Shown in pieces: positions 4,261 to 49,045 of a DNA stretch of 64,000 bases. This stretch comes from an uncultured Mycoplasmatota bacterium. Lineage in GTDB: Bacteria > Bacillota_I > Bacilli_A > RF39 > UBA660. The translations under genes were made by a program, and so were the position numbers. The notes beneath the pieces were generated by a model. It saw nothing but the letters and a program-made list of their open reading frames with translations, had not been told where the DNA came from and did not search any database. The DNA lies in contig URHW01000004.1 in the NCBI GenBank assembly GCA_900547775.1, positions 4,806-68,805 of the forward strand, written 5' to 3'. Within the stretch, counting starts at the first letter, position 1, and every line of letters begins with the position of its first letter.

Positions 4261-5492
4261 AAATCAAAATTATTAGTTAAAAATGGAATTGCACCATACC
4301 TCCCTAACAAATATCCTTTCTCTACATTTTCAAGTTTTCTTACTGAGAAATCATCTAAAGGATATATTGCACTAGAACCATCATCCGGATTCTTTTCTGC
4401 AAACCAAATCTGATCTCTACGTAATATTTCTAAATTAAGTAAATTAGTATCATGTGTATTAAATATTAACTGAGCACCATTCTTATTAACTTCTGGATTA
4501 TTAAATATCTCAACCAAATACTTTACTATAAATGGATGTAAACTCTTATCAAATTCATCATAAATAAGAACCTTACCATTATCTAAAACATCTTTTAAAA
4601 CTGGTATAAAAGAAAATATAACCTGTGTTCCAAGTGATTCTTCATTAATATCAAATTCATACTTATGTCCATGAATCTCATGAACCGTACTTACTTTAAA
4701 TAAAGATGAATTTAAAGGAATAATAAACCTAAAAGTATCTGGTACTCTATTTAAAATATCTTCAGTCATCTTCTCTTCAGTAACTTTATAATCATCAATA
4801 TTAAAATCTGCTTTTTTTAAAAATCCAAGTGCAAAATCTCTTAACTTATTATCTTTATCTTTTGAATACATATTATAAGAATAATTATTTACTTGTTCAT
4901 AAGACATAATAACACCTAACTTCTCAGTTAAGAAATCAAATGCTGGTTTGGTCTTATCATAATTCCAGTTAGTTGCTGTAGCTACAAAAAATTTATTTGC
5001 TGAATTCTTACTCTTGATATCATTCAATATTCGCTCATCACTAGCATTAAAAGAATATTCATTAGTATTCTTTCTTTCAAATATCTTAGTAGGTCTACCA
5101 TTAGGATAATAATATAAGCTCTCTTCATAAACATATAAATTATCAGCACTAAAAGCATAAACATATCTTATACCATCGTATATAAATTTTATTTCAAACT
5201 CACTAGGTTTATCAGAGGTATCTTCACTTAACTTAAAAGGACTAATTGGCATTGCCATATTAGGAGTTCTGTAATTAGACCCTTTAATTATTGAACCAAC
5301 AATTGCGATTATTTTAAATAAATTAGTCTTACCAGAAGCATTAGCTCCATATAAAGCAGTAGTTCTTAAAAGCCTCTCTCCACCAACTTCCATAACATTA
5401 TTTAAAAGTTCCTTATCACTTGAAGCAACCATACTAAATGTATTCTTATCCTTAAAAGATAAAAAATTTGTAACACTAAACTCTATAAGCAT
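4257..5492 (-). CDS. AAA_21/ABC-type ATPase (OLD/PARIS-AriA-like), candidate defence ATPase
   Basis: Walker A GANASGKTNLF. The central region is long, and C-terminal Walker B/D-loop-like motifs (LIYDEFDKSLHP, FNTHD) are present. It is translationally coupled to the RloB-like gene. Confidence 0.6.
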   Translation of the reverse strand: MLIEFSVTNFLSFKDKNTFSMVASSDKELLNNVMEVGGERLLRTTALYGANASGKTNLFKIIAIVGSIIKGSNYRTPNMAMPISPFKLSEDTSDKPSEFEIKFIYDGIRYVYAFSADNLYVYEESLYYYPNGRPTKIFERKNTNEYSFNASDERILNDIKSKNSANKFFVATATNWNYDKTKPAFDFLTEKLGVIMSYEQVNNYSYNMYSKDKDNKLRDFALGFLKKADFNIDDYKVTEEKMTEDILNRVPDTFRFIIPLNSSLFKVSTVHEIHGHKYEFDINEESLGTQVIFSFIPVLKDVLDNGKVLIYDEFDKSLHPFIVKYLVEIFNNPEVNKNGAQLIFNTHDTNLLNLEILRRDQIWFAEKNPDDGSSAIYPLDDFSVRKLENVEKGYLLGRYGAIPFLTNNFDL

Positions 5493-7516: not shown

Positions 7517-7521
7517 CTCAC

Positions 7522-9243
7522 CTACTTTACAATAAATGGATTACTACTAGTTCCATTTCCACCAATAATCTTAGCATTCTTAAGTTGTAATGTTGGTCTT
7601 ACTTTATTAGTATCAGTAACAACACTAGCAGTATCAGTACCACCACCATATGATTTATATGATCCACCAGTAGCAACTGCATAACTACTACTATTAACAT
7701 AATTATTATAAACATGAGCTTCCGGAGTACCATAGTTAAAGTTTGAAGTATCCATATTAAATCCAGTAATCTCAATTAACCAGAAATTCTTACCAGCATT
7801 ACTATTATTAGTTAAATAACTTCTATAACAATTATTACCATTACAATTAGCAACTTTACTATAATCATTCTTACTCATAAGAGCAACCTTAGTATTAAGT
7901 GATCCACCACCAAATACAGTACCAGAAATATATTGATTCTCTACATATCTAGGATTAACTGCACTATAGAAACTATTAACTACATTATCCATAGTATAAC
8001 TAAATGAACCATTCAAATTATGTCCACCTAATCCTTGATAATAATATCTTCCACCATTACAGCATCCACTATACTTACAAGCACCAACTTGTCCATAAAC
8101 TAAATCAGTTCTATTATTATAACTATAAGGATCATTAGCAATTATCTTAATACTATTACCTTTTCTATGATAAATTCTAAATACATAAGAATTATTATTA
8201 AACTTCAAATAATTACTTTCAACTTCACCTTTGTAATAACACTCATCACTCTTACCTGTTTCAGGTGTACAATCATTATTAATAAAATCAATCAAATTAT
8301 CACTAACAACATAATCTAAAGTAAATGGACTAGGAACAGAACCATCACTATTAGTCTTATTATAAGTAATTATTGCACTCTTACTACCAATTGGTTCAGT
8401 AACAAAACCTTTCATTGTAAAATCTGTAATATTATCTACAGGACTAGTAAATTCTTTCTTAGTACCATTCTTATAAGTAACAATTAATGTGACCTTAGTA
8501 TCCTTAGCCCCAAGAACTATCTTATTACCATTCTCATTTAAATAAGCCGTAAAACTATCAACATCAGTCTCACTAGCAGCAACATATACATTTCTAGTCT
8601 TACTAACACTCTTACCATTATAAGTATAAGTATAAACAACACTATAAGTACCAGCCTTAGTAACATCAACATTACAACTAGTAACCTTAATACTATCTCC
8701 CTTAACTAAAGGATAAGTCTTACTAGCATCATTTAAATCAGTTAATACTAACTTACCATACTTAGGATCACTACCATTTAAACCCTTAAACTCATTTTCT
8801 TCAGTACACCAATTACTACCACTAGCATCATAAGCTAAATAAATAGAATCAGCAACTAAATAAGTATTAGTTTCATCTGGTGGATTAAGTTCAAACTCTG
8901 TAGCACCAGTACCACCATTTAAAGTAACACGAACTATTTCATCATCTTTATACTTTTCGCTAGTTTCCTTATTAGTAATATCTTCACTAAGTAGTCCATT
9001 ACTCCTCAAATCACCAATAGTAATATCTACAAAATTATATCCTTCATATAGTTTCTCGATCTCACTCTTATTAGCACTAACATAAGCATCTGCTGCACTA
9101 AGTATCTGCTTAACTGTATCTTTATTATTCTCTTTAGGATCATTCTTACCAACCAAATTAACAATAAAAATACCAACAATAACTGCAATCAGTGCTATAA
9201 CCGCAATTATCTCTACTAATGTAAATCCTTTCTTATTCTTCAT
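7522..9243 (-). CDS. Prepilin-type N-terminal cleavage/methylation domain protein (large type IV pilin-like)
   Basis: N-terminus MKNKKGFTLVEIIAVIALIAVIV is a class III signal (G-F-T-L-V-E plus a hydrophobic helix). The C-terminal region is a 540-aa beta-rich segment. Confidence 0.75.
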   Translation of the reverse strand: MKNKKGFTLVEIIAVIALIAVIVGIFIVNLVGKNDPKENNKDTVKQILSAADAYVSANKSEIEKLYEGYNFVDITIGDLRSNGLLSEDITNKETSEKYKDDEIVRVTLNGGTGATEFELNPPDETNTYLVADSIYLAYDASGSNWCTEENEFKGLNGSDPKYGKLVLTDLNDASKTYPLVKGDSIKVTSCNVDVTKAGTYSVVYTYTYNGKSVSKTRNVYVAASETDVDSFTAYLNENGNKIVLGAKDTKVTLIVTYKNGTKKEFTSPVDNITDFTMKGFVTEPIGSKSAIITYNKTNSDGSVPSPFTLDYVVSDNLIDFINNDCTPETGKSDECYYKGEVESNYLKFNNNSYVFRIYHRKGNSIKIIANDPYSYNNRTDLVYGQVGACKYSGCCNGGRYYYQGLGGHNLNGSFSYTMDNVVNSFYSAVNPRYVENQYISGTVFGGGSLNTKVALMSKNDYSKVANCNGNNCYRSYLTNNSNAGKNFWLIEITGFNMDTSNFNYGTPEAHVYNNYVNSSSYAVATGGSYKSYGGGTDTASVVTDTNKVRPTLQLKNAKIIGGNGTSSNPFIVK

Positions 9244-9251
9244 AAATCCTC

Positions 9252-9818
9252 CTATTTAATTTCCAATATATTATCATGCACAGCACTTGACTTCTCATCA
9301 AAATATCCTAGCATGCTAACACTAAAATCATCAGTTAACCTTTTAAAAGAAATATAAACATTCCCCTTATCAAAATTAACACTTACTCCAGTGACATAAC
9401 CATCACTCACACTTAAATAACAATCATTAGCTTTGCCTTTAATAAACAAACTCTTCAAAAACTCCGGACTAGCTTCACATCTATACCCATCACCACTTTC
9501 ATCTATCTTAAACTTACTAACAATATCACCTAAATTAACATAACTAACATTAGTATCATATCTATAATAACCACCATCTAAAGCATAATACATTCCCTTA
9601 CTATCCATATAGACAGTTCCATCATCATAAATAACCCTACCAACACTCCCATCATAATCAAAACTCCTAGAATAACTATCACCATCATACATAATACCTA
9701 TCCTAGCACTATACTTATCATATACCTTAACACTATCACCCTTATTATAAAAAACAACAAAGATAACCAAACATATAACAACAAGTATACCTATCAAATA
9801 AATATATTTCTTTTTCAT
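9252..9818 (-). CDS. Membrane-anchored hypothetical protein
   Basis: Start chosen at MKKKYIYLIGILVV (TM anchor). The domain is Y/D/G-rich. Confidence 0.4.
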   Translation of the reverse strand: MKKKYIYLIGILVVICLVIFVVFYNKGDSVKVYDKYSARIGIMYDGDSYSRSFDYDGSVGRVIYDDGTVYMDSKGMYYALDGGYYRYDTNVSYVNLGDIVSKFKIDESGDGYRCEASPEFLKSLFIKGKANDCYLSVSDGYVTGVSVNFDKGNVYISFKRLTDDFSVSMLGYFDEKSSAVHDNILEIK

Positions 9819-9958
9819 AATCACCACCAATGTTGAAAACACGTACCAAAAACCTCTACTATTATTATTTATCTCTCTCGCCTGTCCGTTTGTCACTCGA
9901 AGGGTTTCTCAAAGGCTTTTGCGACTGACGATTTCGACCTTATAATTCTTTGCCCTGT

Positions 9959-11542
9959 TTACATACTTATTATGTACGGGGAACTACTGGTTCCTTCTCC
10001 GGTTACGTTGGTAGAGGGCTTAAGAGAAATCGAAGGGCGGACACCGGTGGTGCCATACACGTCGCCACTGCCGAAGCCGCCAAGGCTGCCGACAACGGCC
10101 CAAACGCGAGCGCTGTCACCACTGAAGCTGTAAGGAGACAAGGACCACCAATAATCACTAGTAGCATTTTCTTGTAAATATGTTGTAGAATTAACTAGAT
10201 TAAAAGCGTATCCAGCATATGCTAACTCATCTGCTGTTATTAAACCTATTTTTGAATTTATTTTACTTAGTTCTCCATTACATTTTAAACTAGGGCCCGT
10301 ACCTCCAGCACTTTCACTTGCGCTTACTAATCTTTGCGTAGCACCATAATATGTTTTATTTTTGCCATATCCAAAACCATTTGGTGCCATTCTCCATGGA
10401 TCAAATGTTGTATCTGTTACATTGGTTTTGTCATTGCACCATACAGTATCAGCTATTTTATCAGCATAATCTTTTAAATTATTTGTATACCAAGTTTCTA
10501 AATTAGTTAGTATTGTACTATTATTTGTATTTGCATGTGTAGCTTCATATGTACTAGAACCTGATGTTCCATACTTAAATCCTACATAAGCATTGTCATT
10601 CCAGTTTTCATTAAATTTACTTGTATATGTTGTACTAGAGTATCTTGCAAATGCTGCACTAGCACTATTATTAGCTGAATCACAAGGATTAGCTACTTTT
10701 GTAGTATTATCATTATGTAAGATAAGTTTTACTGAACCATCTCCACTAATTCTTACTATTCTCCAGCACTTATTAGCAAACTGTACATAGTTATTTGTTA
10801 CAGCTCCTCTAAAGTAGTATGATGTACCATTATTATCTTCTGCAGATGCAAGTAATGCTTCATCAGCAGTAGATACTGCTGCTCCTGGTTTAGTTATTGG
10901 AGCCTTAACTTCATTATTAGCTAATATAGTCTCTGCAAAAGTAGGTTCATCCGCAGCAACTATACTAACAACTATCTTACCTTTCCAAGTTTTATTTAAC
11001 CCTTGTTCATTAGTTGTTTCTGAATCTAACCAAAGTCTTAAATCAAAAGATTTTGCTTCTTTATTTTTAAGTCCTGTGGTTTTAAGTACATATCCTTGCG
11101 TATTAGTATCTACTTCCCCTAAAGAAAGTGTACTCAAGATTACTGAACTGCCATCATTAGTCCCTTTAGTTGATAAATTAGATTTAACATAATTATCTTT
11201 TAAATAAGCAGTGTTAGTACTAGTTCTATATTCACTAACTAGTGCTATAGTCACTTTTACATAACTATCACAATTATTAGTTAATGTAAAAGTAAATGGT
11301 GATTGTTTAAGTCCATCTTCATCACTAATTGGAAAAGCATCAGATAATACAATTTCACTTGTCTCTTCTGTTAAAGTGGTATTTAAACAAGTTCTTGTAC
11401 CAATAACATTACTATTAGTTTGAGTTTTAGTAATTCTATAATAAGCATAAGTTACTCCGATAAGTACTAATACAGTTACAAGTAACCCATATAAAATTGT
11501 TCTTTTCTTCTTTTCATTCTCTATAATATCCATTAGCCTCAC
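9959..11542 (-). CDS. Paralog 2 of the hypervariable surface protein family; putative DGR target
   Basis: Same N-domain and core as paralogs 1 and 3, without the roughly 100-aa central insertion. The C-terminal cassette at about 10030-10135 is GC-rich and NNC-codon-rich. Confidence 0.75.
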   Translation of the reverse strand: MRLMDIIENEKKKRTILYGLLVTVLVLIGVTYAYYRITKTQTNSNVIGTRTCLNTTLTEETSEIVLSDAFPISDEDGLKQSPFTFTLTNNCDSYVKVTIALVSEYRTSTNTAYLKDNYVKSNLSTKGTNDGSSVILSTLSLGEVDTNTQGYVLKTTGLKNKEAKSFDLRLWLDSETTNEQGLNKTWKGKIVVSIVAADEPTFAETILANNEVKAPITKPGAAVSTADEALLASAEDNNGTSYYFRGAVTNNYVQFANKCWRIVRISGDGSVKLILHNDNTTKVANPCDSANNSASAAFARYSSTTYTSKFNENWNDNAYVGFKYGTSGSSTYEATHANTNNSTILTNLETWYTNNLKDYADKIADTVWCNDKTNVTDTTFDPWRMAPNGFGYGKNKTYYGATQRLVSASESAGGTGPSLKCNGELSKINSKIGLITADELAYAGYAFNLVNSTTYLQENATSDYWWSLSPYSFSGDSARVWAVVGSLGGFGSGDVYGTTGVRPSISLKPSTNVTGEGTSSSPYIISM

Positions 11543-11780
11543 CTACTATAAACAATTATAAATGATAAGTATCTTTTAATCAAGGCTCTTTAATTTAATT
11601 TAATGAAAATTATAAAAAAAAGATAACTTCATGATATCAATAGTTATCTTACTTAAATCTTGCTTAAATCCTACTTAAATTAATTTTTATAATACATCTA
11701 ATTTCTTTATAATAATGAGTATTAAAACAATATTATAACTTTACCAAAAACCTACAAAATTATTTGACATTTACATTTAA

Positions 11781-11958
11781 AAGCAGCAAAAAACAGCAAA
11801 AAAGCAGCAAAAAAGCAGCAAAAAAACAGCAAAAAAACAGCAAAAAGCAGCAAAAAAGAAGCAAAAAACAGCAAAAAACAGCAAAAAGTAGCAAAAAAAC
11901 AGCAAAAAGCAGCAAAAAAACAGCAAAAAACAGCAAAAAAACAGCAAAAGTAGCAAAA
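11781..11958. repeat. Tandem A-tract repeat (about 16 units of cagcaaaaaa(c/g), 10-12 bp period)
   Basis: Direct reading. Phased A5-7 tracts lie between the stop of 11962-13632 and the promoter region of paralog 2. Confidence 0.9.
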
Positions 11959-11961
11959 CTA

Positions 11962-13632
11962 CTACTTCAATTTCCAACAAGAATGACCTGATTTATTATC
12001 ATGATAAATTTTTCCTTCTTTCTTCAATAAATCTAATAGATACCTAACTCGGCTTAGTTTAGTGCCTTCATCTAATGAATTAGGTAACTTATCTTTAAGT
12101 AAAGAAATAATTTCTTTTCTACTTGCTGAACCATATTCTTTTATATATTTAATTATTAGTTCCATATAAAACTCATTTTCTAATCCAGAATTATAAACAT
12201 ACTCTTCCTTCTTTTCTGTTAAGCTAGCAAGACTTGATGAAATATAAATGTTTGGATATCTTCCTTCAATTAAATGTTCTTTTTTTAGATAATCACTTTG
12301 CTCTTTACTTATCGTATATCTCTTTTGTAATCTATCAAGTAATATTATTGCACTAATATCTAAGTTAGTTCTTTCAAATAACAATCTACTATAATTTTCA
12401 TCAATTATTTTTCCATATAATGTTACAATAACTCGGTTAGAATTACTTAAATCATAATCAGGCATTGGAAAATATTTTTTCTTTTGAATATCATAAACTC
12501 GTTTAATTCCACTACCAACTGTATCTATCATATTCAAATTAACCATCGCACTTATTAAAAAAGGATTCCTATAATATGGAGAAGAATATCCATCTTTTAA
12601 AACGTTCTCAATTGTTTCCGGAATAAAACTGCCTTCATTTATGATCATCAATCTATCTGAATATTCAATTATATTAATGTTTCCATGAAGTCTGTAATCT
12701 TGATGAGCAATACAATTATTAATTAACTCACGAAGAATATAATTATCATACTTATCTACTTCATAAGGAAATAAAGTTGCATCACTAATCATGTATCTAT
12801 ACTTTAAATTTCTAATCTTAGATTTTATTTTATCAATATTAATAATAAAAGGTATTCCAAAATGTTCATAATCAATCACATTAAAATCATCATAAAGTTT
12901 CCACGTCATTCGTGGAATATATCCTTCCATCAAATAATCATAATCACTATTTCCTAAAAGCAACATACAAGCCATAGTTATCTTATTATTAATTGTTAAT
13001 CTTGCTTTATTTAAAAATTCAATATCAGTCAAATTATCAACTTCATCTATTAATTTATCATCTTTATGTTTAACTTTAAATTGTTCTCTAGCAACTTTAA
13101 TTGCACCTTTATCAAGATTATCTATTGTAGTTTCTTCAAGAACTTGTCTTGACCAATCATAATTTATAGTAGTTTTAATTTGTTCAATCTTATTTAGTGA
13201 TAAAGGAGATAATGATTCGCCTATTCTTCCATAAGGAAACCCTTTCCAATTAATTGGAGTTCCAGAGGCGGCTGGTACTTGAAACATTATCACTCTTTTA
13301 CCATTAACAACAATTGTATAAATTTCAATAAAACTTATATTATCCGTAGTATTATCAGAAATTTGTTTTTTCACCTTATTAAAATCATTATCTATGCAAT
13401 AATTAGTACTAGTTAACTCATGTGTTTTATCATCAACACCAAATATTATCCAAGAATAAAGTTTGTTTTTTAAATTAGCTTCATTAGCTAAAGCTGAGAA
13501 ATATTTTCCTAAGGTATCAACATCAAAATTATTCTTAGCTCTTTTAAACTCAACACATTCATTTTCAGAAACTTTTAATAGATTACTTAATATTACAAGT
13601 AGCTCCTCAGTTGTCTTATACAAACTTATCAC
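11962..13632 (-). CDS. AlbA_2 (Schlafen-like) plus HATPase_c_4-type putative transcriptional regulator
   Basis: 556 aa. The N-terminal divergent AAA-4/AlbA_2-like region (ECVEFKRAKNNFD) is followed by an ATPase-like region and a C-terminal wHTH-like tail. Confidence 0.5.
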   Translation of the reverse strand: MISLYKTTEELLVILSNLLKVSENECVEFKRAKNNFDVDTLGKYFSALANEANLKNKLYSWIIFGVDDKTHELTSTNYCIDNDFNKVKKQISDNTTDNISFIEIYTIVVNGKRVIMFQVPAASGTPINWKGFPYGRIGESLSPLSLNKIEQIKTTINYDWSRQVLEETTIDNLDKGAIKVAREQFKVKHKDDKLIDEVDNLTDIEFLNKARLTINNKITMACMLLLGNSDYDYLMEGYIPRMTWKLYDDFNVIDYEHFGIPFIINIDKIKSKIRNLKYRYMISDATLFPYEVDKYDNYILRELINNCIAHQDYRLHGNINIIEYSDRLMIINEGSFIPETIENVLKDGYSSPYYRNPFLISAMVNLNMIDTVGSGIKRVYDIQKKKYFPMPDYDLSNSNRVIVTLYGKIIDENYSRLLFERTNLDISAIILLDRLQKRYTISKEQSDYLKKEHLIEGRYPNIYISSSLASLTEKKEEYVYNSGLENEFYMELIIKYIKEYGSASRKEIISLLKDKLPNSLDEGTKLSRVRYLLDLLKKEGKIYHDNKSGHSCWKLK

Positions 13633-13737: not shown

Positions 13738-16700
13738 TTAACTCTGAGTTCCATCATTTGTTTCTACTGTTATATCATAATCTGTATCATAATAGTAATT
13801 ACTAAATAAAACATTTGAATTATTAATAACTGTTCTTATACCTAAGTCTCCTCTACCATATATAGCGTTTCTTTCAATAGATTTAACACTATCAGTTAAA
13901 GTTATTGTCTTAAGTATAATATTATTCATAAGTGCATAACTACTAATATTTTCTGCATCTATTACATATTCTAACTTCTCATAATAACTAGGAACACTTA
14001 TTAAAGTCGTACCATCCTTATTAAACAATACTCCATCTCTGCTACTATAATTATTATTATCAGCACTAACTATAAATTTATTTATATTTAGGTTTATTCT
14101 TGATTCTATACTAGTAACAGAGCTTGGCACACTTAAACTCATCTTCTTATCATCAGCACTTACTAATCCATTTAATGAGTCATATATAATTCTCGTTGTT
14201 CCTTCTCTAATTTGTACATCTCCTTCAAGTTTATCAGGAACTAAAATAAGTGTATCCCCATTATATAATATATTATTTTCTACTTCTAAAGTACTTGCTT
14301 TTATTTCTTTAAAGTTAACTCCCCTAAATGGTGCTATACCTACATAAGCATTTCCTATATCAGCACTCTTACCCTTAAAGTTATAAAACGCATAATCTCC
14401 AATAGTTTGAACACTTCTAGGAATAACAATATCACCTAAACTACTATCTATAAAAGCATAATCTCTAATATATTCTAAGCCTTCATTAAATGTTATATTA
14501 CTTAAACTAGTATTTGTACTAAAAGCATACTGCTCAATAGTTCTAACCGAACTTCCTATAGTAACACTAGTAAGACCTAAATTATTAGCAAATGCTCTCT
14601 TACCAATCTTTTCACTATTAACATTAAGCATCTTTAAACTAGTACTTTCAAAGGCCGATGTTCCAATAGATTTAACACTTGATGGAATATTAATATTAGT
14701 AATACCAGTTCCATAAAATGCATTATTACCAATACTACTAACATTATTCCCAATAACAATATTATTAATTTGGCTCGCATAATTATCCCAAGGAGCGCTT
14801 ATAAAATCTTGCATATCTCCGGTTCCATACACGCTTAATGTATAACCATTACTTCCATCTATCACTTTGTTACTATATAAAAATGCGATTACATCTTCTT
14901 TATTATTCTTACCGATCTTATAATAATTCACATATTCATGCTCTGCACTTACTATCTCACTAGTAGTACGCTTTTGATTAACTAAGCCATATATATCTCT
15001 AACTGCACCATCACTTAAAGTTAATGTAAATAGTCCATAATAATTATTTGCTTTTACCACTACTTCAAATCGGTATCCATTAGTAATATCTTTAACCTTA
15101 GTAACACTATCAACTAAAACACCATTACTAGCACTAATCATACCCTTATCAAGAGATGCACTAGCAAGTCCTCCACCAATATCCGTACATTCCAAATACG
15201 CCTTACCAGTTCCATAAATATCACTTGGTACATCAGTAAACATACAACTAGGTGCTGGATTATCTGCAATAGCATAATAAGTAGTTCCTTTATTTCTACT
15301 ATTAATTGTAACTGTACTTCCAATATTTTTAATGTTTCCACCACTAGGACTTGTACTCCATCCCTTTTTAGTTATTCCATCTGGAACACTAAAGTCAGGT
15401 AATGTAACTGTGCATCCTGAACCTAACCTACTTTCTGTACAAGTAAGTGTTGTCTCACCAAGAGTTCCATAAGTTCCCCCATTTAAATTAATTTGAAATA
15501 CATTAGTAACATATATAGGTATTCTAAGTTCTCCACAATCTGCACCTTTAATAACTAAATATGTAGTTCCAGTTCTGTATGATCTTATCTTTATCTTATC
15601 AGTAAACACCTTATTAATATTATCAGGTTCATATGAGAAATTACTTTGTGATACCACATTAACACTTGCTGTCCAACTATTACTAACACTATAACTAAGT
15701 TTGCCAGTAGCAGCATAACTAATTGTAATCTCTGCACTTTCCCTATTAACACCTAAAGTAATTGAATTTAGATTACTTTTTAAAGAATAAACATTATAAT
15801 CAAGTTCAGCAAGTCTATTACCATTATTTTCTCTTAAGTAAATAACTGCTTTACCCGTATTAGTTCTTCCTAACTTATAAGGAAGACTACTATCATACTG
15901 CGTACTAGTAACATTATGTCTTACTAATGACATCTGTCCATATCTTCCACCATTATTGGCACAATTATTACTTAAACTAATCGCTGGCTGACTAGGATTA
16001 TTACCTAAATCTACTAAATAATAATCAGTCATACTATCAAACACTATATTATTCTTCGTACTATCACAAGTCTTACCACTACTATCTAATACTCCCAAAT
16101 TAATCCCATGAATTGTAATGGTATTATTACTAAGATCAGAACCAACCTCTTTACACACTTTAGTAACCGTATTATTATTCTCTCTAAAATATAAACTTGT
16201 CTTATAAATAACTGGTATAAATATATCTAATGAGCCATCTCTTACACTCTTAACATTAACTTTAAAATCTTCTACATTATCATAAATATCTTCACCATTA
16301 GTGGTCTCTAAAATAACTGTATCATTTTCTATATGACAATTTAAATAATCAGTATTTTCTTCATATCCACCATAAGTACTTTTCTTATAAACAGTGCAAG
16401 TAAAATCATTACTAGAGCTTCCGTTTATCTTAGACTTAAACTGTGTCTTATCATTATTTTGTCTTCTTCCCCCATTAAAATATAAATATTCTGGTATATC
16501 TGTATTATCTAATTTAATATTTGAAACATTAACCTCAAAACTAGTTTCACCACAAATTGATCCTTTTATTCTAATGGTAACAGTTCCAATACTATTTCCT
16601 TTTATATAAAAGTAATTCTGATTATTTAAAGTTATTGTACTTCCAAATGAACTATTATTTGCTGATATACTAGCAGCACTACTATCAACTGATACAGTAA

Positions 16701-17769
16701 TTCTTCCTGTACCACCAGCCTTAAGTTCTACTCTCTTAGCAGCCTCACCTACAATAACATTCGTAATATGCGTTACTACATCTAAATCATAAACTTCTCT
16801 AGTTATAACCTTACTAATACCTGCATGATCTTCAGTTATCGTAAAACTTTTCTCACCTGTACTAGTACCACTATTCATATATAGAACGTCTCCCTTTATA
16901 GTAGCATTCAAATCATCACTAATCCCACTAAGAGAAAACTCGCCATAATTCTTCCCCGTAATCCTAAAAAGTTCATTAGTAAGTGTTTTCATACACATCT
17001 TAGGTGTATATCCATCTATATCATAATTAACAACATACACCCCTAAATTCATATGTCGATATAACTTCTTTTCTGCTCCTTCATCATCTCTGTATGTACC
17101 AGTTACTTGTACTTGATAATTTCCATCACTTCCAGTACCATTATCATTTAAAGTAATAACTAAATCATCACCAACAACTTTACAACTAAATGGACCTGTC
17201 GCTTCACATGTAATACTTTTAAAAGTTCCTTTAGTATAAATCTTAGTTTTAAATTCCTCATGAAGTCCCCAATAAAAATCTTTCTTTGTAGTTCCTAAAT
17301 TAAGTGAATAATTACCATCAACTGCTGGACATGAATAATTCTTATTTTTTATATCATAAAAAGTAGCACTTATCGTTACTGTAGATGGATCATAACATAA
17401 AAGAACATTACCACTGAGTCTTCCACCAGTAACTGGATTGCCAACATAACTAGCATCATCTTTAGTAGTATCATACTCTAAATAACCTAGACCTACTAAA
17501 TCATCAACACTTATTATGCACTCATCATACGCATCATCATTAATAACTCCAGATTCTAACCCATTAGTACACTTCTGATAAGTATTAATATTATCTTCAC
17601 CATACTTAGAAGCACTAGTTTCAATAGTACTAATCTTAGAATTTAAAATACTCTCTTTTGTATTTTTTGAAATATTAGTAACCGCTGGTATCAAAATAAC
17701 CATAATAATTGCAAGTATTGTAATAACTGCAAGAAGTTCCACCATTGTAAAACCCTTATGGTTCTTCAT
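13738..17769 (-). CDS. Giant prepilin-type N-terminal domain protein with Ig-like middle region and C-terminal BspA-type leucine-rich repeats
   Basis: N-terminus MKNHKGFTMVELLAVITILAIIMV is a class III signal. The C-terminal 350 aa carry repeated IPSSV.SIG..AF LRR_5-like units. Confidence 0.75.
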   Translation of the reverse strand: MKNHKGFTMVELLAVITILAIIMVILIPAVTNISKNTKESILNSKISTIETSASKYGEDNINTYQKCTNGLESGVINDDAYDECIISVDDLVGLGYLEYDTTKDDASYVGNPVTGGRLSGNVLLCYDPSTVTISATFYDIKNKNYSCPAVDGNYSLNLGTTKKDFYWGLHEEFKTKIYTKGTFKSITCEATGPFSCKVVGDDLVITLNDNGTGSDGNYQVQVTGTYRDDEGAEKKLYRHMNLGVYVVNYDIDGYTPKMCMKTLTNELFRITGKNYGEFSLSGISDDLNATIKGDVLYMNSGTSTGEKSFTITEDHAGISKVITREVYDLDVVTHITNVIVGEAAKRVELKAGGTGRITVSVDSSAASISANNSSFGSTITLNNQNYFYIKGNSIGTVTIRIKGSICGETSFEVNVSNIKLDNTDIPEYLYFNGGRRQNNDKTQFKSKINGSSSNDFTCTVYKKSTYGGYEENTDYLNCHIENDTVILETTNGEDIYDNVEDFKVNVKSVRDGSLDIFIPVIYKTSLYFRENNNTVTKVCKEVGSDLSNNTITIHGINLGVLDSSGKTCDSTKNNIVFDSMTDYYLVDLGNNPSQPAISLSNNCANNGGRYGQMSLVRHNVTSTQYDSSLPYKLGRTNTGKAVIYLRENNGNRLAELDYNVYSLKSNLNSITLGVNRESAEITISYAATGKLSYSVSNSWTASVNVVSQSNFSYEPDNINKVFTDKIKIRSYRTGTTYLVIKGADCGELRIPIYVTNVFQINLNGGTYGTLGETTLTCTESRLGSGCTVTLPDFSVPDGITKKGWSTSPSGGNIKNIGSTVTINSRNKGTTYYAIADNPAPSCMFTDVPSDIYGTGKAYLECTDIGGGLASASLDKGMISASNGVLVDSVTKVKDITNGYRFEVVVKANNYYGLFTLTLSDGAVRDIYGLVNQKRTTSEIVSAEHEYVNYYKIGKNNKEDVIAFLYSNKVIDGSNGYTLSVYGTGDMQDFISAPWDNYASQINNIVIGNNVSSIGNNAFYGTGITNINIPSSVKSIGTSAFESTSLKMLNVNSEKIGKRAFANNLGLTSVTIGSSVRTIEQYAFSTNTSLSNITFNEGLEYIRDYAFIDSSLGDIVIPRSVQTIGDYAFYNFKGKSADIGNAYVGIAPFRGVNFKEIKASTLEVENNILYNGDTLILVPDKLEGDVQIREGTTRIIYDSLNGLVSADDKKMSLSVPSSVTSIESRINLNINKFIVSADNNNYSSRDGVLFNKDGTTLISVPSYYEKLEYVIDAENISSYALMNNIILKTITLTDSVKSIERNAIYGRGDLGIRTVINNSNVLFSNYYYDTDYDITVETNDGTQS

Positions 17770-17779
17770 AAAATCACCT

Positions 17780-18316
17780 CTATTCTGCTATCTTAAAATA
17801 AATATTAGATGTAAAATCATTTCCATTAGAAGCAAGCATTTTAACCCTTAACTCCCTAAGACTAGTATTTTCAAACTCCTTATAATTAACAAAATCATTC
17901 TCATCTATTATTGCTCCATCAGGAACTTTACGCACAAAATTACGTGTCCTCTCATCACTAGTTAAATTATTATTAACATATTCATATTTAATATATCTTG
18001 CATCATCAGTTAATGATAACTTCTTTACAATAAGTTCATTTAAATTACCTTCCCTAAAAGCATTAAAAGTAATTGTAACACTTTTCTTCCCATCTAAACT
18101 CACACTCTTGACTCCATATCTATTAATATCCGTACTAATCGTATCAATTAAAATGGTATCTAATACTTCAAAATCAACTTCTAACTTACTCTTCTTATAT
18201 AACCCATTAACTGTAATTAATAATCTTGTAATAAAAATAAGAATAATTGACACAAGCACAATAGATACAATAATCTCAACAAGAGTCATCCCCTTCTTAT
18301 TCATCACTATCACCAA
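17780..18316 (-). CDS. Pseudopilin (prepilin-type N-terminal domain)
   Basis: N-terminus KKGMTLVEIIVSIVLVSIILIF. It overlaps the upstream gene by 20 nt. Confidence 0.7.
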   Translation of the reverse strand: MVIVMNKKGMTLVEIIVSIVLVSIILIFITRLLITVNGLYKKSKLEVDFEVLDTILIDTISTDINRYGVKSVSLDGKKSVTITFNAFREGNLNELIVKKLSLTDDARYIKYEYVNNNLTSDERTRNFVRKVPDGAIIDENDFVNYKEFENTSLRELRVKMLASNGNDFTSNIYFKIAE

Positions 18317-18806
18317 ACCTTAATGAAGCATACTGATAAATAGTCGGATTATTATTATAATTATTCTCATCTACATACATAACAATAATTCTATAACCAC
18401 TTTCCTTAGTTGGATCTAACTTCTTTATATAATTCTGTGTAGTAGCCTCTAAATCAGATAACTCCCCACTATTAATATCACTAGTAAACCACTTAGTAAA
18501 ATAAATAGAATTTATTCTCATATTAGTAACTAATGATTTAAAATAAGTATCACCCTTACCTAAACAATCACTATTACCCTGACAATAAATATACACACTA
18601 GAGCCATCATAACCATTAAACCCACTATCTTCAAAATACTCTTTAACTAAATTAGTCTTATAAATATATTCTGTATTATCATAATAACTCTTTCTTTGTA
18701 CAGCACTAATAACATTCATATAACCACCATAAAGCATAATTAAAAGCACACACAAAACAAGAATAACTACAATTGTCTCTACTAAAACAAAACCCTTATT
18801 CTTCAT
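18297..18806 (-). CDS. Pseudopilin (prepilin-type N-terminal domain)
   Basis: N-terminus MKNKGFVLVETIVVILVLCVLLIM. Confidence 0.7.
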   Translation of the reverse strand: MKNKGFVLVETIVVILVLCVLLIMLYGGYMNVISAVQRKSYYDNTEYIYKTNLVKEYFEDSGFNGYDGSSVYIYCQGNSDCLGKGDTYFKSLVTNMRINSIYFTKWFTSDINSGELSDLEATTQNYIKKLDPTKESGYRIIVMYVDENNYNNNPTIYQYASLRFGDSDE

Positions 18807-18814
18807 AATACCTC

Positions 18815-19735
18815 CTAATCATGCTTAAAACTAATATTACACTTACTAGCATGCCCATTATTCTTATACTTAAATAAATACTTAGTATTACTTTCATTAG
18901 TAATTGGACTAATCTCATAATCATTATAATTACAACTTACTTCATCTAATTCATAACCCGCATAAGGAACAATCGTAAAAGAAATCTCATCATCATCTAT
19001 AAAATCCTTTGTAATAAATGAAACTGTACCATCAAAATAATCTATATTATTATCAAGCCACTCTAAACTAACAATATCATTATAAGCGTAAGTAATATCC
19101 ATAAGTAATAAATTAGTATAATAAGTTCTATTAGTGTTATAAGTACTCTGTTTACCAACAATCATATAACTAAGAGTTTCACTACCAGTTAAATCAACTA
19201 TTTTAGAAACACTCTTCCAACCATCATTATTAGAAGTACTAATAACCCTACTACTATCTATAACATCACCACTCACTGTATTAGAAACAAACACATCACT
19301 GGTATAACCAATACTAGGTTGATAATATTCCATACGAATATAATATTTATGAGTAGAATCTACACTTATTGGCTGAGATAAATTACCACTTGATCCCGTC
19401 TTAATAACACACCTCTTACCAAAATCTGCAACCTGAAAATTACCATTATTTTGAATACTCCAATCAGTAAGATTATTATTAGCATCAACACTATTAAAAT
19501 TACCATTACGCACTAAATTAGTAATACTCTTTCCACCATCAACACTAGCATAAGAAACATATAAACTTATACTACCACTACCATCATTAAGTTTCTCTCG
19601 AATCTCACCATTATATCTATCCAAAATAGTCTTATTTGCAATATAATTACTCAAAAGAGCCGTCAAAATAGCAATAAAAGCAAGAAAAAAAGTATAAATC
19701 AAACTAGTAGCAATAAACCCACTCTCATTCTTCAT
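18815..19735 (-). CDS. Pilin-like protein (atypical prepilin N-terminus)
   Basis: N-terminus MKNESGFIATSLIYTFFLAFIAIL is followed by a beta-rich domain. It is the first gene of the pilin operon. Confidence 0.5.
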   Translation of the reverse strand: MKNESGFIATSLIYTFFLAFIAILTALLSNYIANKTILDRYNGEIREKLNDGSGSISLYVSYASVDGGKSITNLVRNGNFNSVDANNNLTDWSIQNNGNFQVADFGKRCVIKTGSSGNLSQPISVDSTHKYYIRMEYYQPSIGYTSDVFVSNTVSGDVIDSSRVISTSNNDGWKSVSKIVDLTGSETLSYMIVGKQSTYNTNRTYYTNLLLMDITYAYNDIVSLEWLDNNIDYFDGTVSFITKDFIDDDEISFTIVPYAGYELDEVSCNYNDYEISPITNESNTKYLFKYKNNGHASKCNISFKHD

Positions 19736-19790
19736 AACACCAGCCCTATTCTCTTTAAATTATAACATTATCTTAAAAGAAAAAAAAGCC

Positions 19791-19805
19791 CTAACTAAAA
19801 GTTAG
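19791..19805 (-). terminator. Rho-independent terminator after paralog 3
   Basis: Hairpin ctaact-aaaa-gttag, followed on the minus strand by a T-run of 8 or more. Confidence 0.5.
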
Positions 19806-19815
19806 AACTCTATAA

Positions 19816-21687
19816 TTAATTTATAATATAAGGATTATCACTCGTACCATTACCAGTTACGCTGGTCGAAGATATAAGAGAAATGGCCGGGCGAACACCA
19901 GTGTCGCCGTCAATGTTGCCGTCGCGCAAGTCACCCGAGCGCACGCCCCGATCGAGAGTGATGATGCTATCGAAGTAGCTAGGCGACAAGGACCACCACC
20001 AATTCGTCCCAGTATTTTCTTGTAAATATGTAGAACGATTATAATAACCAGATACCGACCCAGCAAATGCTATTTCATCTGCAGTTAATAATCCTATTTT
20101 ATAAGTTAAGTTACCATTACCATTCTTTGTATCATCAACAGTAAATTTAGATAATTTTCCACCATTATTATCATTTGGACATTTTAATGTTGGCTGTTTA
20201 GTGGAATCCAATCTATTATATGCAGCATAATTTGTATACTCTGTCCCATAACCTAATCCTCCACTTACTGTACTTTTATCATTACACCAAATTGTATCAG
20301 CTAGTTTATCTTCATATGGTGCTAAATTTTTTGTATACCATATCTCCAAATTTTTTAGTATTGTACTTTTATTTGTATTTGCATGTGTACTTGCATAATC
20401 ACTTGCTCCAGCAGTACCATACATAAATCCTACATAAGCATTATCATTATGGTTTGTATTAAATGCACTTTTATATGTTTCACCAGAGTATCTTGCAAAT
20501 GCTGCATTAGTACTATTATTTGCTGATGAACAAGGATTAGCTACTTTTGTAGTATTATCATTATGAAGAACAAGTTTTACTGAACCATCGCCTGTTATTC
20601 TTACTATTCTCCAGCATTTATTAGCAAATTGTACATAATTATTTTTTACTGCCCCTCTAAAGTAGTAAGATGTTCCATAATCATCTTCTGTACTAGCAAG
20701 TAATGCTTCTGTTGTATTTTTATTTGATGTTATTTGTTTGTACGTAAAACTGCTTGATGTAGCGCTTACTACATAATATATACTGCTTAAATTAGTGGTT
20801 GTTGTCATTGATCCTGCAGTACTTGAACCAGAACTTGATAAAGAACTATATGGCAAATATTTTCCAACTAAGCTTGAATATGAATTAGCATATGTATCAC
20901 TTGTTACTGCAGTACCAGTTAAATTAAAGTTTGTCCCATTTGCTTCGTATCCAGTACCATAAGTTATATAATATGCTTGAGATGTTGATAATACACTTGT
21001 TGACTGACTTTCAACATCATCTTTAGTATGAGCATTTACTTCTTTTCCTGGTGTTGTAAGTGGTGATTTTATCTCGTTATTTGCAAGTATTGCATCTTTC
21101 AATGTAACCTCTTCATTAGCAGCTACTCCAACAACGACTATCTTACCTTCCCAGTTCTTATTAAGTCCATCTGCAATAGATGTTTCACCATCCATCCATA
21201 CTCTTAAATCGTAACTTTTCTCTTCATTTGCTTTAAGTCCAGTAGTTACTAAAATATAACCTTTATTTGTGCCTTCCAATTCAGTTAAAGTCTGACTTCC
21301 AAGAAGCACGGAAGAGCCATCAGTCGTTCCTTTGCTAGATAAATTAACTTTTAAAAAACTATCCTTTAAGTATGCTACATCAGTACTTGTTCTATACTTA
21401 CTATCAATCGTAATATACACTTTAACATAACTATCACAATTATTTTTTAAAGTGAATGTAAATGGTGTTTGTTTAAGACCATCTTCATCACTTATCGGAA
21501 AAGCATCACTTAAAGTTATTTTAGATGTTTCTTCAGTAAGCGTTGCATCTAAACAAGTTCTAGTTCCAATAACATTACTATTAGTTTGCGTTAATTTCAA
21601 TCTAAACCAAGCATAACTTACACCCATAAAAACAACTAAAGTTATAAGTAATCCATAATAAATTTTTATTTTCTTTTTATCTTCCAT
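19816..21687 (-). CDS. Paralog 3 of the hypervariable surface protein family; putative DGR target
   Basis: Full-length architecture like paralog 1. The C-terminal cassette at about 19890-19985 is GC-rich and NNC-rich. Confidence 0.75.
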   Translation of the reverse strand: MEDKKKIKIYYGLLITLVVFMGVSYAWFRLKLTQTNSNVIGTRTCLDATLTEETSKITLSDAFPISDEDGLKQTPFTFTLKNNCDSYVKVYITIDSKYRTSTDVAYLKDSFLKVNLSSKGTTDGSSVLLGSQTLTELEGTNKGYILVTTGLKANEEKSYDLRVWMDGETSIADGLNKNWEGKIVVVGVAANEEVTLKDAILANNEIKSPLTTPGKEVNAHTKDDVESQSTSVLSTSQAYYITYGTGYEANGTNFNLTGTAVTSDTYANSYSSLVGKYLPYSSLSSSGSSTAGSMTTTTNLSSIYYVVSATSSSFTYKQITSNKNTTEALLASTEDDYGTSYYFRGAVKNNYVQFANKCWRIVRITGDGSVKLVLHNDNTTKVANPCSSANNSTNAAFARYSGETYKSAFNTNHNDNAYVGFMYGTAGASDYASTHANTNKSTILKNLEIWYTKNLAPYEDKLADTIWCNDKSTVSGGLGYGTEYTNYAAYNRLDSTKQPTLKCPNDNNGGKLSKFTVDDTKNGNGNLTYKIGLLTADEIAFAGSVSGYYNRSTYLQENTGTNWWWSLSPSYFDSIITLDRGVRSGDLRDGNIDGDTGVRPAISLISSTSVTGNGTSDNPYIIN

Positions 21688-21694
21688 ATTTCAC

Positions 21695-23011
21695 CTACTT
21701 ACTCTTAATTAATGGACTAGTCACAGTTGTCCTAACCATAATATCATTTCCATTCTCATCAACCTTTTCATTCTCTATCGGTTTACTAGAATCATAATAA
21801 GAAAGTACCATTTTTGGATATGCAAGTGATGTATCTCCATTAACATCAAATAAATTAATCCAAGAAGTATCATTTGCTTCCAATACCTCATTTAAAGATA
21901 AACCTCTATCCTGTGAAAACTCACTTAACTTACTCTTAGCACTAGTAGTTCCCCAATTATATGCACAAAGTGCTGCTGGTACATTATAATCCATATTAAC
22001 CAAACAATTCTGAAAATACATACAAGCAATCTTTATATTAGTATCAAGTTCTCTAATATTACTATCAGTAACATGAAAAGTCTCCCAAGAAGAAGTATCA
22101 AAATTATACGCTTTAACATCCTGATTTACCCAAACGGCATACTGCATTTGCATAAGACCTACTCCACCGCCTGGATCAATCTCTGTACTATGTACTCCCT
22201 TTTCTTGTGTTGCTATCGCCATTATCAAATCTTTATCTATTCCATAAGTTTTAGCATACTTGCTAACTAACTCATAATAATTTTCTTTTGCATTAACTGC
22301 TTTCTCATCGCTAGTTCTATCACTAAAATCAATATTAAAATTCTGATAAATAGTGTCTTTTTCTTCCACTAACTGTGCAAGTAACTCTCCATTAGTTGGT
22401 TCCTTATTTTCTGCTTCTTCTACATCTAATAAACTTATCATCTGCGTATCCATTAAAAGTTTATCATATCCTGGATCTTTTTCCTCTGTACTCGGCTGCG
22501 CACTTATCTCTTGATCCTCAGTTTCATTTAAATATTTTTCCACACTATCATGATTAACTTCTTCCATCCAAGTTGCACTAACACTAGGAGTAAAAGGATC
22601 CTCAAACTCTTTAAGTTTATGACCAATACTTAAAACAGATACCATAATAAGAAGAACCATAAGTCCCTTAGTAATTGTCCCAGTCTTAGATACCCTTTTA
22701 GCTTTCCTACTACCATTCATATACTTACTAGCCCTACTAGCATTATACTTATCTACTTTTTTTCTAGCATCTACTCTTTCAAATACCTGCTTATAATCCT
22801 TAATAAAAATAACTCTATCAGAATAAACAACTCTTATAACCTTTCCATCTTTACTAATTCTAGCATCAGTAGCATTTCTTCTTTCTACTTCATTTAAAAA
22901 TTTCTTCGCTTCATCACCAAAAAAGATATTACTATAAGAACTATCAGTATAACTATTATAATACTTAGTCGTTAATCTATTTCTATCACAGCAAACAACT
23001 ATTTTGTCCAT
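21695..23011 (-). CDS. Membrane-anchored lytic transglycosylase (SLT domain)
   Basis: An N-terminal cytoplasmic region and a TM segment (LMVLLIMVSVL) are present. The SLT motifs are E...GLMQMQ, AYN.G. Confidence 0.7.
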   Translation of the reverse strand: MDKIVVCCDRNRLTTKYYNSYTDSSYSNIFFGDEAKKFLNEVERRNATDARISKDGKVIRVVYSDRVIFIKDYKQVFERVDARKKVDKYNASRASKYMNGSRKAKRVSKTGTITKGLMVLLIMVSVLSIGHKLKEFEDPFTPSVSATWMEEVNHDSVEKYLNETEDQEISAQPSTEEKDPGYDKLLMDTQMISLLDVEEAENKEPTNGELLAQLVEEKDTIYQNFNIDFSDRTSDEKAVNAKENYYELVSKYAKTYGIDKDLIMAIATQEKGVHSTEIDPGGGVGLMQMQYAVWVNQDVKAYNFDTSSWETFHVTDSNIRELDTNIKIACMYFQNCLVNMDYNVPAALCAYNWGTTSAKSKLSEFSQDRGLSLNEVLEANDTSWINLFDVNGDTSLAYPKMVLSYYDSSKPIENEKVDENGNDIMVRTTVTSPLIKSK

Positions 23012-47755: not shown

Positions 47756-49045
47756 CTAATTTACAACATAAGGTTTTTCCCTCGTACCATTTCCGGTTAC
47801 GTTGGTCGTCGATTTAAGAGAAATCGAAGGACGAAGCCCGTAGGCGTTGCTCACGTTGAAGCCGACACCTTGTCCGCCAATGCCCCAAACGCTAGCGTTG
47901 CCGCCACGGAAGCCGTCAGGAGACAAAGACCACCAATAAGTGGCTGTAGCATTTTCTTGTAAATATGTTGTAGATACATTTTTATTATAAGCATATCCTG
48001 CAAACGCTAGTTCATCTGCTGTTATTAATCCTACTTTTGATGTTATTTTACTTAGTTCTCCATTACATTTTAAACTAGGGCCCGTGCCTCCAGCACTACC
48101 ACTAGTACCTACTAATCTCTTGGTAGCGCCATAATATGTTTTATTTGTACCATATCCTAATCCAGTTGCATTTCCACCATATGACCATGGATTATAACTT
48201 GTATCTGTTACATTTGTTTTATCATTACACCATATACTATTATCTATTACACTTTCATATGCTGTTAGATTATTATTATACCATGTTTCTAAATTAGTTA
48301 GTATTGTACTCTTATTAGTGTTTGCATGTGTAGCTTCATATGTACTAGAGCCTGGTGTTCCATACTTAAATCCTACATAAGCATTATCATAATAGTTTGT
48401 ATTAAATGCACTTTTATATGTTTCACCAGAGTATCTTGCAAATGCTGCACTTGCACTATTATTTGCAGCATCACAAGGATTAGCTGCTCCAGTTGGATTA
48501 TCATTATGTAAGATAAGTTTTACTGAACCATCTCCACCAATTCTAACTATTCTCCAGCACTTATTAGCAAATTCTACATAGTTATTTGTTACTGCACCTC
48601 TAAAGTAATAAGATGTTCCATAATCATCTTCTGCAGATGCAAGTAATGCTTCATCAGCAGTAGATACTGCTGCTCCTGGTGTGGTTATTGGAGTCTTTAC
48701 TTCATTATTTGCAAGTATTTTATCTTTAAATTTCAGATTAAATGAAACATTGCACCTCACATTACCAGCACTTATATCATTAAAAGACACTACCCATTTT
48801 GTGCCATTCCATGTAGCCTTTGCTCCTGCGTCTTGTTTTATTCCATTTCTAGTACACTCTACAGTTGCCATATACTTATTTGTAGTTGGAAATGTAGTAC
48901 TAGCTTTTCCATCAATAACAGCTGCTATGATAGGTCCATTATTATCTTCTAGTAAATCTTTTTTATCACTTTTACCATATATAAACATTCCAGAAATAAT
49001 TATCGTGCATACAATAATTAAACTAATTATTTTCTTCATATTCAT
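47756..49045 (-). CDS. Paralog 4 of the hypervariable surface protein family (distinct short N-domain); putative DGR target
   Basis: Shares the core (FANKCWRIVRIGGDGS) and C-terminal cassette. The N-terminal 110 aa are different. The cassette at about 47830-47925 is GC-rich and NNC-rich. Confidence 0.75.
   Translation of the reverse strand: MNMKKIISLIIVCTIIISGMFIYGKSDKKDLLEDNNGPIIAAVIDGKASTTFPTTNKYMATVECTRNGIKQDAGAKATWNGTKWVVSFNDISAGNVRCNVSFNLKFKDKILANNEVKTPITTPGAAVSTADEALLASAEDDYGTSYYFRGAVTNNYVEFANKCWRIVRIGGDGSVKLILHNDNPTGAANPCDAANNSASAAFARYSGETYKSAFNTNYYDNAYVGFKYGTPGSSTYEATHANTNKSTILTNLETWYNNNLTAYESVIDNSIWCNDKTNVTDTSYNPWSYGGNATGLGYGTNKTYYGATKRLVGTSGSAGGTGPSLKCNGELSKITSKVGLITADELAFAGYAYNKNVSTTYLQENATATYWWSLSPDGFRGGNASVWGIGGQGVGFNVSNAYGLRPSISLKSTTNVTGNGTREKPYVVN

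Follow-up and report, generated by a model that had tools for sequence, protein, structure and literature searches.

A GC-rich cassette in a chromosomal gene of an uncultured gut Bacilli genome and its fit to a DGR template repeat from related genomes

To our knowledge DGRs are the sole prokaryotic system of targeted protein hypermutation, and we know of little documentation of how often their remote targets are rewritten or of what becomes of such targets once the element is lost. The DGR of Bordetella phage BPP-1, whose target is Mtd, has an AAC-rich template repeat (TR), mutagenesis specific to adenines and a variable region (VR) located C-terminally in a ligand-binding domain; it is phage-borne, has a single cis target and carries no MSL. 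The gene studied here, which we call paralog 3, has the same mechanism class, an AAC-rich TR and a C-terminal VR, but unlike Mtd it appears to be a remote target. The DUF6273 or C-type-lectin-like DGR targets of gut phages (the tentaclins and those of Faecalibacterium prophages) are phage receptor-binding proteins, whereas the proteins here are chromosomal, membrane-anchored and encoded beside pilin-like genes, with a fold that is predicted only.

In the survey of Wu et al. 2018, MSL-containing DGRs (architecture D, which includes the Legionella DGR) pair a small MutS-like ORF with Avd (PMC5758913). The related loci described below likewise carry small MutS-like and Avd-like ORFs, in the order target, TR, MutS-like ORF, Avd-like ORF, reverse transcriptase (RT), and are chromosomal rather than phage-borne. 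They differ from the surveyed group in their host, a gut Bacilli lineage with a small (~1.1–1.2 Mb), 30%-GC genome, and in that the targets form a multi-copy paralogue family, with the DGR parts absent from the stretch of DNA under study. The Treponema denticola DGR is a case of one element with several non-adjacent targets, recognised by differences from the TR that are A-to-N only (PMC5758913). Paralog 3 resembles it in remote targeting, but its VR has extra non-adenine changes and lacks strain-to-strain variation; the Treponema DGR also belongs to the HRDC-containing DGRs (PMC5758913), whereas the loci here carry MSL plus Avd. Bacteroides DGRs are reported to diversify type V pilus adhesins (bioRxiv 10.1101/2024.11.15.621889). 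Both cases would be gut-bacterial DGRs aimed at adhesive pilus components, but ours is in another phylum, its pilins are of a type IV-like N-methyl kind, and target and pilus are linked by adjacency only. The mechanism, the accessory genes, the kind of domain and the targeting of remote genes all have precedents; mildly new are two template classes that would feed one paralogue family, the adjacency to pilin-like genes, and live cis VRs alongside apparently frozen, decaying remote ones.

The paralog 3 gene, its family and its cassette

The window, by which we mean the whole 64,000-nucleotide stretch analysed (contig URHW01000004.1), has ~30% GC, and almost all of its genes lie on the minus strand. 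Five paralogs are found in it:

19816..21687, minus strand: paralog 3 gene (623 aa), from its ORF and the paralog alignment
1704-3578: paralog 1
9959-11542: paralog 2
47756-49045: paralog 4
63240 to window end: paralog 5, truncated

The paralog 3 protein has a membrane-anchor helix at its N-terminus (residues 4–36 in an AlphaFold2 model) and a DUF6273-like domain at its C-terminus, inside which the variable region sits. All five paralogs have 28–31 residues between WWSLSP and G[VL]RP[SA]ISL at the C-terminal end, and in paralog 3 this cassette occupies a position in the last 10% of the ORF. The domain assignment is a weak one: Pfam DUF6273 scored 16.6 bits against paralog 3, below the gathering cut-off of 23.5, and 25 bits against paralog 2, and it was matched by 24 of 71 family members at E ≤ 0.01. 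A PDB profile search gave no match, and in two AlphaFold2 models the C-terminal domain had a pLDDT of ~40 (<50), too poor for a test of the C-lectin-like fold.

A previous reading of this DNA, made from its letters alone, had pointed to one string of codons in paralog 3:

19876..19980, minus strand: cassette quoted in the sequence-only reading (35 codons, AGC TAC TTC to TCT CTT), located by an exact in-frame string match

The quoted string was exact and in frame 0 on the minus strand, although it lies at 19876–19980 and not at 19890–19985 as had been given, an offset of ~5–14 nt. Its description as GC-rich and NNC-rich held up well. GC content was 0.59 in the cassette, against 0.31 in the rest of the gene and 0.30 in the window; 19 of the 35 cassette codons end in C, as do 29 of the gene's other 588 codons (Fisher p = 3e-14). 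The named flanks, WWSLSP and RPAISL, were both present. A GC content of at least 55% over 105 nt was reached at only three sites in the window, which are the cassettes of paralogs 2, 3 and 4; the cassettes of paralogs 1 and 5 are AT-rich (38–41% GC) and have no DGR signature. The supposed excess of about 4 codons over paralogs 2 and 4 was mistaken. From WWSLSP to RP the cassettes of paralogs 1–5 have 28, 31, 29, 28 and 29 codons, so that of paralog 3 is 2 codons shorter than that of paralog 2 and 1 codon longer than that of paralog 4.

We searched the window for the parts of a DGR. An adenine-tolerant sliding comparison of the five cassettes returned only self-matches and paralogue flanks, with no template-like copy in the window. 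No RT, Avd or MSL was found in the 64 kb, either by scanning for RT motifs or by using the corresponding proteins of a related locus (L129, see below) as tblastn queries.

Template repeats in related genomes and the fit of the paralog 3 cassette

A first scan of the genome collection, using a consensus in which the sites varying among three VRs were masked as N, gave 0 matches; the pattern was too strict, since adenine-derived sites can coincide among few VRs. A fully A-compatible IUPAC pattern matched only in viral contigs, apparently at low-complexity contig ends, and these matches were discarded as junk; no TR of either template class (see below) was found in viral contigs. The pattern that succeeded was built from three alleles, with A forced at the most variable sites, "same base or A" allowed elsewhere, and plain bases at scaffold codons. 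In a metagenome scan the TR-only pattern recovered four identical TR copies. The sequence opens with TGGTGGTCCTTGTCGCCT, continues in largely AAC codons as AAC AAC TTC AAT GGC AGT AAC GCT AAC GTT TGG AAC GTG AAC TCG GGC AAC TTG AAC AAC AAC AAC GTT AAC AAC AAC AAT GGT TTG CGT CCG GTC A, and closes with ATTTCTC. Judged by its sequence this is a textbook template repeat, which we term class A; at 29 codons it equals the paralog 3 VR in length and has the same register.

The TRs lie in DGR loci, arranged in the order given above, in MAGs of related gut Bacilli; matching TRs and RT thus come from these relatives and not from the window's own genome. In locus L129 some 280 nt separate the TR from a paralog 3-like target gene that precedes it, and the VR of this gene departs from the TR at adenines only. 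The locus further encodes a MutS_I-domain ORF of 129 aa, an Avd-like ORF of 115 aa (its best NCBIfam match is the DGR Avd model NF033474, at E = 1e-5, below the model cut-off) and an RVT_1 reverse transcriptase of 369 aa with IGNMTSQ and YMDD. At least 25 further loci, from gut MAGs labelled "uncultured Bacilli", have the same type of cassette. Two chromosomal contexts are represented, one of them on a 1.2-Mb scaffold, and six TR sequence variants were recovered in the clade. Five RT sequences from the three closest clusters (representatives and members) were looked up, and none came from samples that hold the window's contig.

Comparison with these TRs defined the following features in paralog 3; the substitutions are relative to all five TR copies compared, with coordinates checked by hand:

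19875..19998, minus strand: DGR variable region (VR), from TGGTGGTCC to ATTTCTC, homologous to the 29-codon class-A TR
19914..19968, minus strand: span of six non-adenine substitutions
19968: non-adenine substitution G>A, Gly>Ser
19959: non-adenine substitution G>A, Ala>Thr
19952: non-adenine substitution T>A, Val>Asp
19950: non-adenine substitution T>C, Trp>Arg
19933: non-adenine substitution C>T, synonymous
19914: non-adenine substitution G>A, Val>Ile
19852..19884, minus strand: VR 3' flank, ATTTCTCTTATATCTTCG followed by a small hairpin (ACCAG-CGTAA-CTGGT); presumed homing-site region

The TRs of L129, L131, L135 and L138 aligned to exactly 19875–19998, and no other cassette in the window matched them over their full length. 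Against the best of them (L131), the paralog 3 VR was changed at 23 of 36 A sites but at only 7 of 81 non-A sites (Fisher p = 1.2e-9), a rate of change at TR adenines ~7 times that at other sites. The proposal that this is a template-driven, DGR-type diversified cassette was therefore upheld: related genomes have a 29-codon, AAC-rich TR beside a DGR RT, and the differences cluster on its adenines.

A cassette of this kind might instead have come from ordinary paralogue divergence, from gene conversion between paralogues, or from a GC-rich segment gained by horizontal transfer. Paralogues and strains have evidently recombined, and the window holds neither template nor RT, both of which such an origin would fit. 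It is opposed by the length of 29 codons and the register, which are those of a genuine TR; by changes ~7 times commoner at TR adenines (p = 1e-9); by the NNC enrichment (p = 3e-14); by two syntenic alleles (L004 and L005) that suit this TR too, their non-adenine changes numbering 2 and 7; and by the 38–41% GC of the non-DGR cassettes here, those of paralogs 1 and 5. The further notion that the TR-like sequences are themselves copies of a VR is contradicted by their RT adjacency and AAC content. We find an origin without a retroelement barely credible, the TR match effectively excluding non-DGR sources.

The six non-adenine substitutions lie in columns that are identical across six distinct TR variants. 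The five that change an amino acid fall on a scaffold (xxFxGxxAxVWxVxSGxLxxxxVxxxxG[VL]RP) that is otherwise kept in the homologues inspected, and its near-invariant Trp is lost in the paralog 3 VR. A count of 6–7 non-A changes exceeds the 0–1 usual for DGR VRs.

The sequence flanking the VR on its 3' side, ATTTCTCTTATATCTTCGACCAGCGTAACTGGT, has one A/G difference from the flank of an RT-adjacent VR in L130, a VR that departs from its cognate TR at just 1 non-A site. We presume this flank to be an IMH-like target recognition region, a function read from sequence likeness; no strong GC hairpin of the BPP-1 kind appeared with any consistency downstream of the VR. Since the flank is intact and near-identical to that of the near-perfect cis target in L130, the paralog 3 copy may still be targetable.

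Remote and RT-adjacent variable regions among strains

VR/TR pairs adjacent to an RT (cis pairs) served as a positive control. Eleven of 16 had zero non-A changes, and 14 of the 16 VR peptides were distinct; an identical RT protein was seen with completely different cis VRs between strains. By these sequence comparisons, RT-adjacent VRs behave as active DGR targets should. One of the RT clusters of the clade (P0123) is rich in RT fragments, which look like pseudogenes. In L150–L155 the DGR RT is split or truncated (for example L151, 9556–10639), with fragments of 84–231 aa, and the VRs beside these broken RTs are still perfect adenine-only TR derivatives; RT inactivation is therefore recent there, or the breaks are assembly frameshifts.

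Only four alleles were seen at the paralog 3 locus of the window's species: that of the window itself, those of L004 and L005, and a P0008 type present in L161–L164. L004 and L005 have 29-codon cassettes that differ mainly at the first two positions of NNC codons. Each of the four alleles has 2–7 non-A changes relative to the TR. Counting only TR columns invariant across the variants, they total 17 changes, of which 13 are GC-to-AT, the bias expected of the background spectrum in an AT-rich genome. The window cassette was identical in L001–L003 and in P0001–P0003, the latter being every copy of this gene type retrieved. There was no hypervariation among closely related strains at the paralog 3 VR, where the four alleles are shared between strains; these were read from assemblies, which collapse within-sample variation and would make low-level diversification invisible. 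The paralog 3 cassette had been called a third independent variant with the same signature as those of paralogs 2 and 4. A DGR-type variant it is, but in the window's species it looks like a fixed allele that is not currently diversifying.

VR alleles of paralogs 2 and 3 recur identically across strains, in different combinations, which points to stable alleles shuffled by recombination. Comparing the window with strain L003 revealed a 6.5-kb identical block at 15600–22200 (two differences in one 300-nt bin) that covers paralog 3 and most of the pilin-like genes, with the strains differing by ~3% on either side; this pattern indicates recent recombination or a sweep. Because paralog 3 lies in the block, finding it unchanged between the window and L003 does not count as separate evidence of stasis. 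We had taken the identity of paralog 3 together with the difference of paralog 2 as proof of differential activity; this argument was downgraded, given the block and given that the whole 3' half of paralog 2 is divergent.

Could the DGR itself have made the non-adenine changes, in a single recent homing, by error-prone reverse transcription at non-A sites or through a mosaic cDNA from two templates? Three cis pairs (L131, L156 and L157) do have 3–5 non-A differences. Zero non-A changes in 11 of 16 cis pairs argue against this, as does the spectrum of the remote alleles, which is mostly GC-to-AT like background mutation in a 30%-GC genome, and no second template supplies the observed bases. We think this quite improbable.

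A different possibility is that paralog 3 is a currently active remote target of an intact class-A DGR outside the window, whose TR already has the six "non-adenine" differences. Remote targets are documented for DGRs (PMC5758913), TRs drift (there are six variants in the clade), and the 3' flank with its hairpin is one A/G difference from that of the L130 cis target. The VR, moreover, has A at 4 of the 6 odd positions, which would fit retained TR adenines: if a TR in the window's own genome had A at 19968, 19959, 19952 and 19914, most of the apparent "decay" would vanish. But the six positions are invariant in every TR variant recovered and encode scaffold residues conserved in the ~200 homologues inspected, and an A in the Trp codon of the TR would scramble the fold in most progeny. 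Given the observed retention of 36%, the probability of A being kept at 4 of 4 sites is ~0.02. The same cassette is found in every copy retrieved (P0001–P0003), and sister alleles have the same kind of GC-to-AT non-adenine changes at other positions. Current activity of this sort seems to us unlikely, though less so than DGR-made non-adenine changes.

The account that we favour, and consider probable, is that the cassette was written by DGR mutagenic retrohoming from the class-A TR acting in trans, and has since been a static allele gathering ordinary mutations. At some point in the lineage an RT, with Avd-like and MutS-like accessory proteins, would have copied the 29-codon AAC-rich TR with misincorporation opposite template adenines, and in paralog 3 the cDNA would have taken the place of the 3' end of the DUF6273-type ligand-binding domain. 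Such adenine-directed rewriting would explain why a genome of 30% GC has a cassette rich in GC and NNC codons and poor in A. Paralog 3 would be a remote (trans) target, its own locus having neither template nor RT, with a template class that differs from that of paralogs 2 and 4. After the last rewriting only ordinary, mostly GC-to-AT point mutation would have acted, costing conserved scaffold residues (Gly, Ala, Val-Trp and Val), and the VR would now circulate as a fixed allele moved between strains by recombination. We infer that the six non-adenine changes postdate homing and that this copy is no longer acted on by the element; a frozen, slowly decaying allele is the most likely state of the cassette.

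Three states can thus be seen side by side: RT-adjacent VRs, nearly unique to each strain and usually with zero non-adenine changes; remote VR alleles, common to strains and with 2–7 ordinary mutations; and paralogs 1 and 5, without a DGR signature. The paralog 3 cassette is a clear but fairly ordinary example of the known DGR mechanism. For annotation, when a gene of an AT-rich genome has at its 3' end an island rich in GC and in NNC codons, this can be taken as a reliable footprint of a DGR, even with no RT in view.

A predicted second template class and the pilin-like neighbours

The other two GC-rich cassettes belong to a different class:

10022..10150, minus strand: paralog 2 VR (31 codons, class-B template type); different template class, same system
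47816..47935, minus strand: class-B-type VR of paralog 4 (28 codons), which has lost 9 nt and differs at several non-adenine sites

The 5' halves of these two cassettes resemble the class-A TR, and their 3' halves are not derivable from it. Three alleles of the paralog 2 VR occur in the species, and most of their differences fall on the two N positions of NNC codons. At the paralog 4 locus other genomes mostly have 31-codon cassettes with the scaffold xxFxGxxAxVWxVxGSxGxFxxxxVxxTxGV, and paralog 2 has the same scaffold as these 31-codon homologues. A separate 31-codon class-B template is implied by four DNA (VR) alleles; as DNA, a class-B TR was not found in any fetched locus. The template predicted from the alleles would read AAC AAC TTC AAT GGY AAC AAC GCT AAC GTT TGG AAC GTT AAC GGC AGC AAT GGC AAC TTS AAC AAC AAC AAC GTG AAC AAC ACC AAC GG... 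The sequence-only reading had implied one template for the cassettes of paralogs 2, 3 and 4, and in this part it was refuted. We found no template common to the three, because that of paralog 3 cannot yield the 3' halves of the other two cassettes and because the 31-codon class is a separate one. Nor do their length differences reflect indels relative to one shared template, barring the secondary 9-nt deletion of paralog 4 within the 31-codon class. Close homologues of paralog 4 include 29-codon versions with other residues at the deletion point (GGRQGVGF, GGDKGVGF); with residues and lengths both differing there, the spot is indel-prone.

The 70 nt after the paralog 2 stop codon (9889–9958) are homologous to the target-TR spacer of DGR loci (aaggtcga.atc...gagaaacccttcgag). 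This homology suggests that paralog 2 derives from a target that once lay beside an RT, with later loss or replacement of both TR and RT.

Paralog 3 had been placed directly upstream of a pseudopilin operon, and four pilin-like genes do come next, with a terminator-like hairpin in between:

13738..19735, minus strand: pilin-like gene cluster downstream of paralog 3, from Pfam results
19785..19811, minus strand: terminator-like hairpin and T-run between paralog 3 and the pilin-like genes (1 site against 0.1 expected)

The four genes 3' of paralog 3 encode a 306-aa ORF, two small ORFs and a 1343-aa protein, and three of them have an N_methyl motif. In the two small ORFs N_methyl scored above the gathering cut-off in one and below it in the other. 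The 1343-aa protein, last of the cluster, has an N_methyl motif and BspA leucine-rich repeats. Paralog 2 also precedes a pilin-like set (window 5639–9896), comprising a 214-aa ORF, a 573-aa protein with N_methyl and Ig-like domains, and a 625-aa arylsulfotransferase-like protein.

On the basis of gene adjacency, the DGR-type proteins may be pseudopilus-associated, and this context suggests DGR-diversified, lectin-like proteins working with pseudopili in an uncultured gut lineage. A full-text literature search for DGR plus pseudopilin returned no paper. We can offer a broader scenario for this lineage of gut Bacilli with small genomes, tentatively and with more doubt than belief. Two template classes, one of 29 and one of 31 codons, would have seeded a family of five DUF6273 proteins anchored in the membrane, of which paralogs 2 and 3, at the least, are encoded directly upstream of type IV-like pilin genes. 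The proteins might be diversifiable, pseudopilus-associated adhesins. Remote loci might be rewritten in rare bursts, after which their VR alleles would freeze, decay by ordinary mutation (to the point of losing the Trp of the scaffold) and pass between strains through recombination. The copy beside the RT would meanwhile keep diversifying, and the RT would be repeatedly pseudogenised.

Other observations concern the neighbourhoods of paralogs 1 and 2. Some 16 tandem copies of a 10–11 nt unit, AAAAA(A)CAGC(A), occupy 11779–11949, between a gene with a Schlafen/AlbA_2 domain (11962–13632) and the start of paralog 2 (11542). These A-tracts recur in phase with the helical repeat, a spacing that suggests intrinsically bent DNA. 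When the window is compared with strain L003, the 300-nt bin at this place has 91 differences, more than any other bin but one. Directly upstream of paralog 1, at 3646–5492, an RloB-like gene (204 aa) is paired with an AAA_21 ATPase gene (411 aa), an arrangement that resembles an OLD/Gabija-style defence pair.
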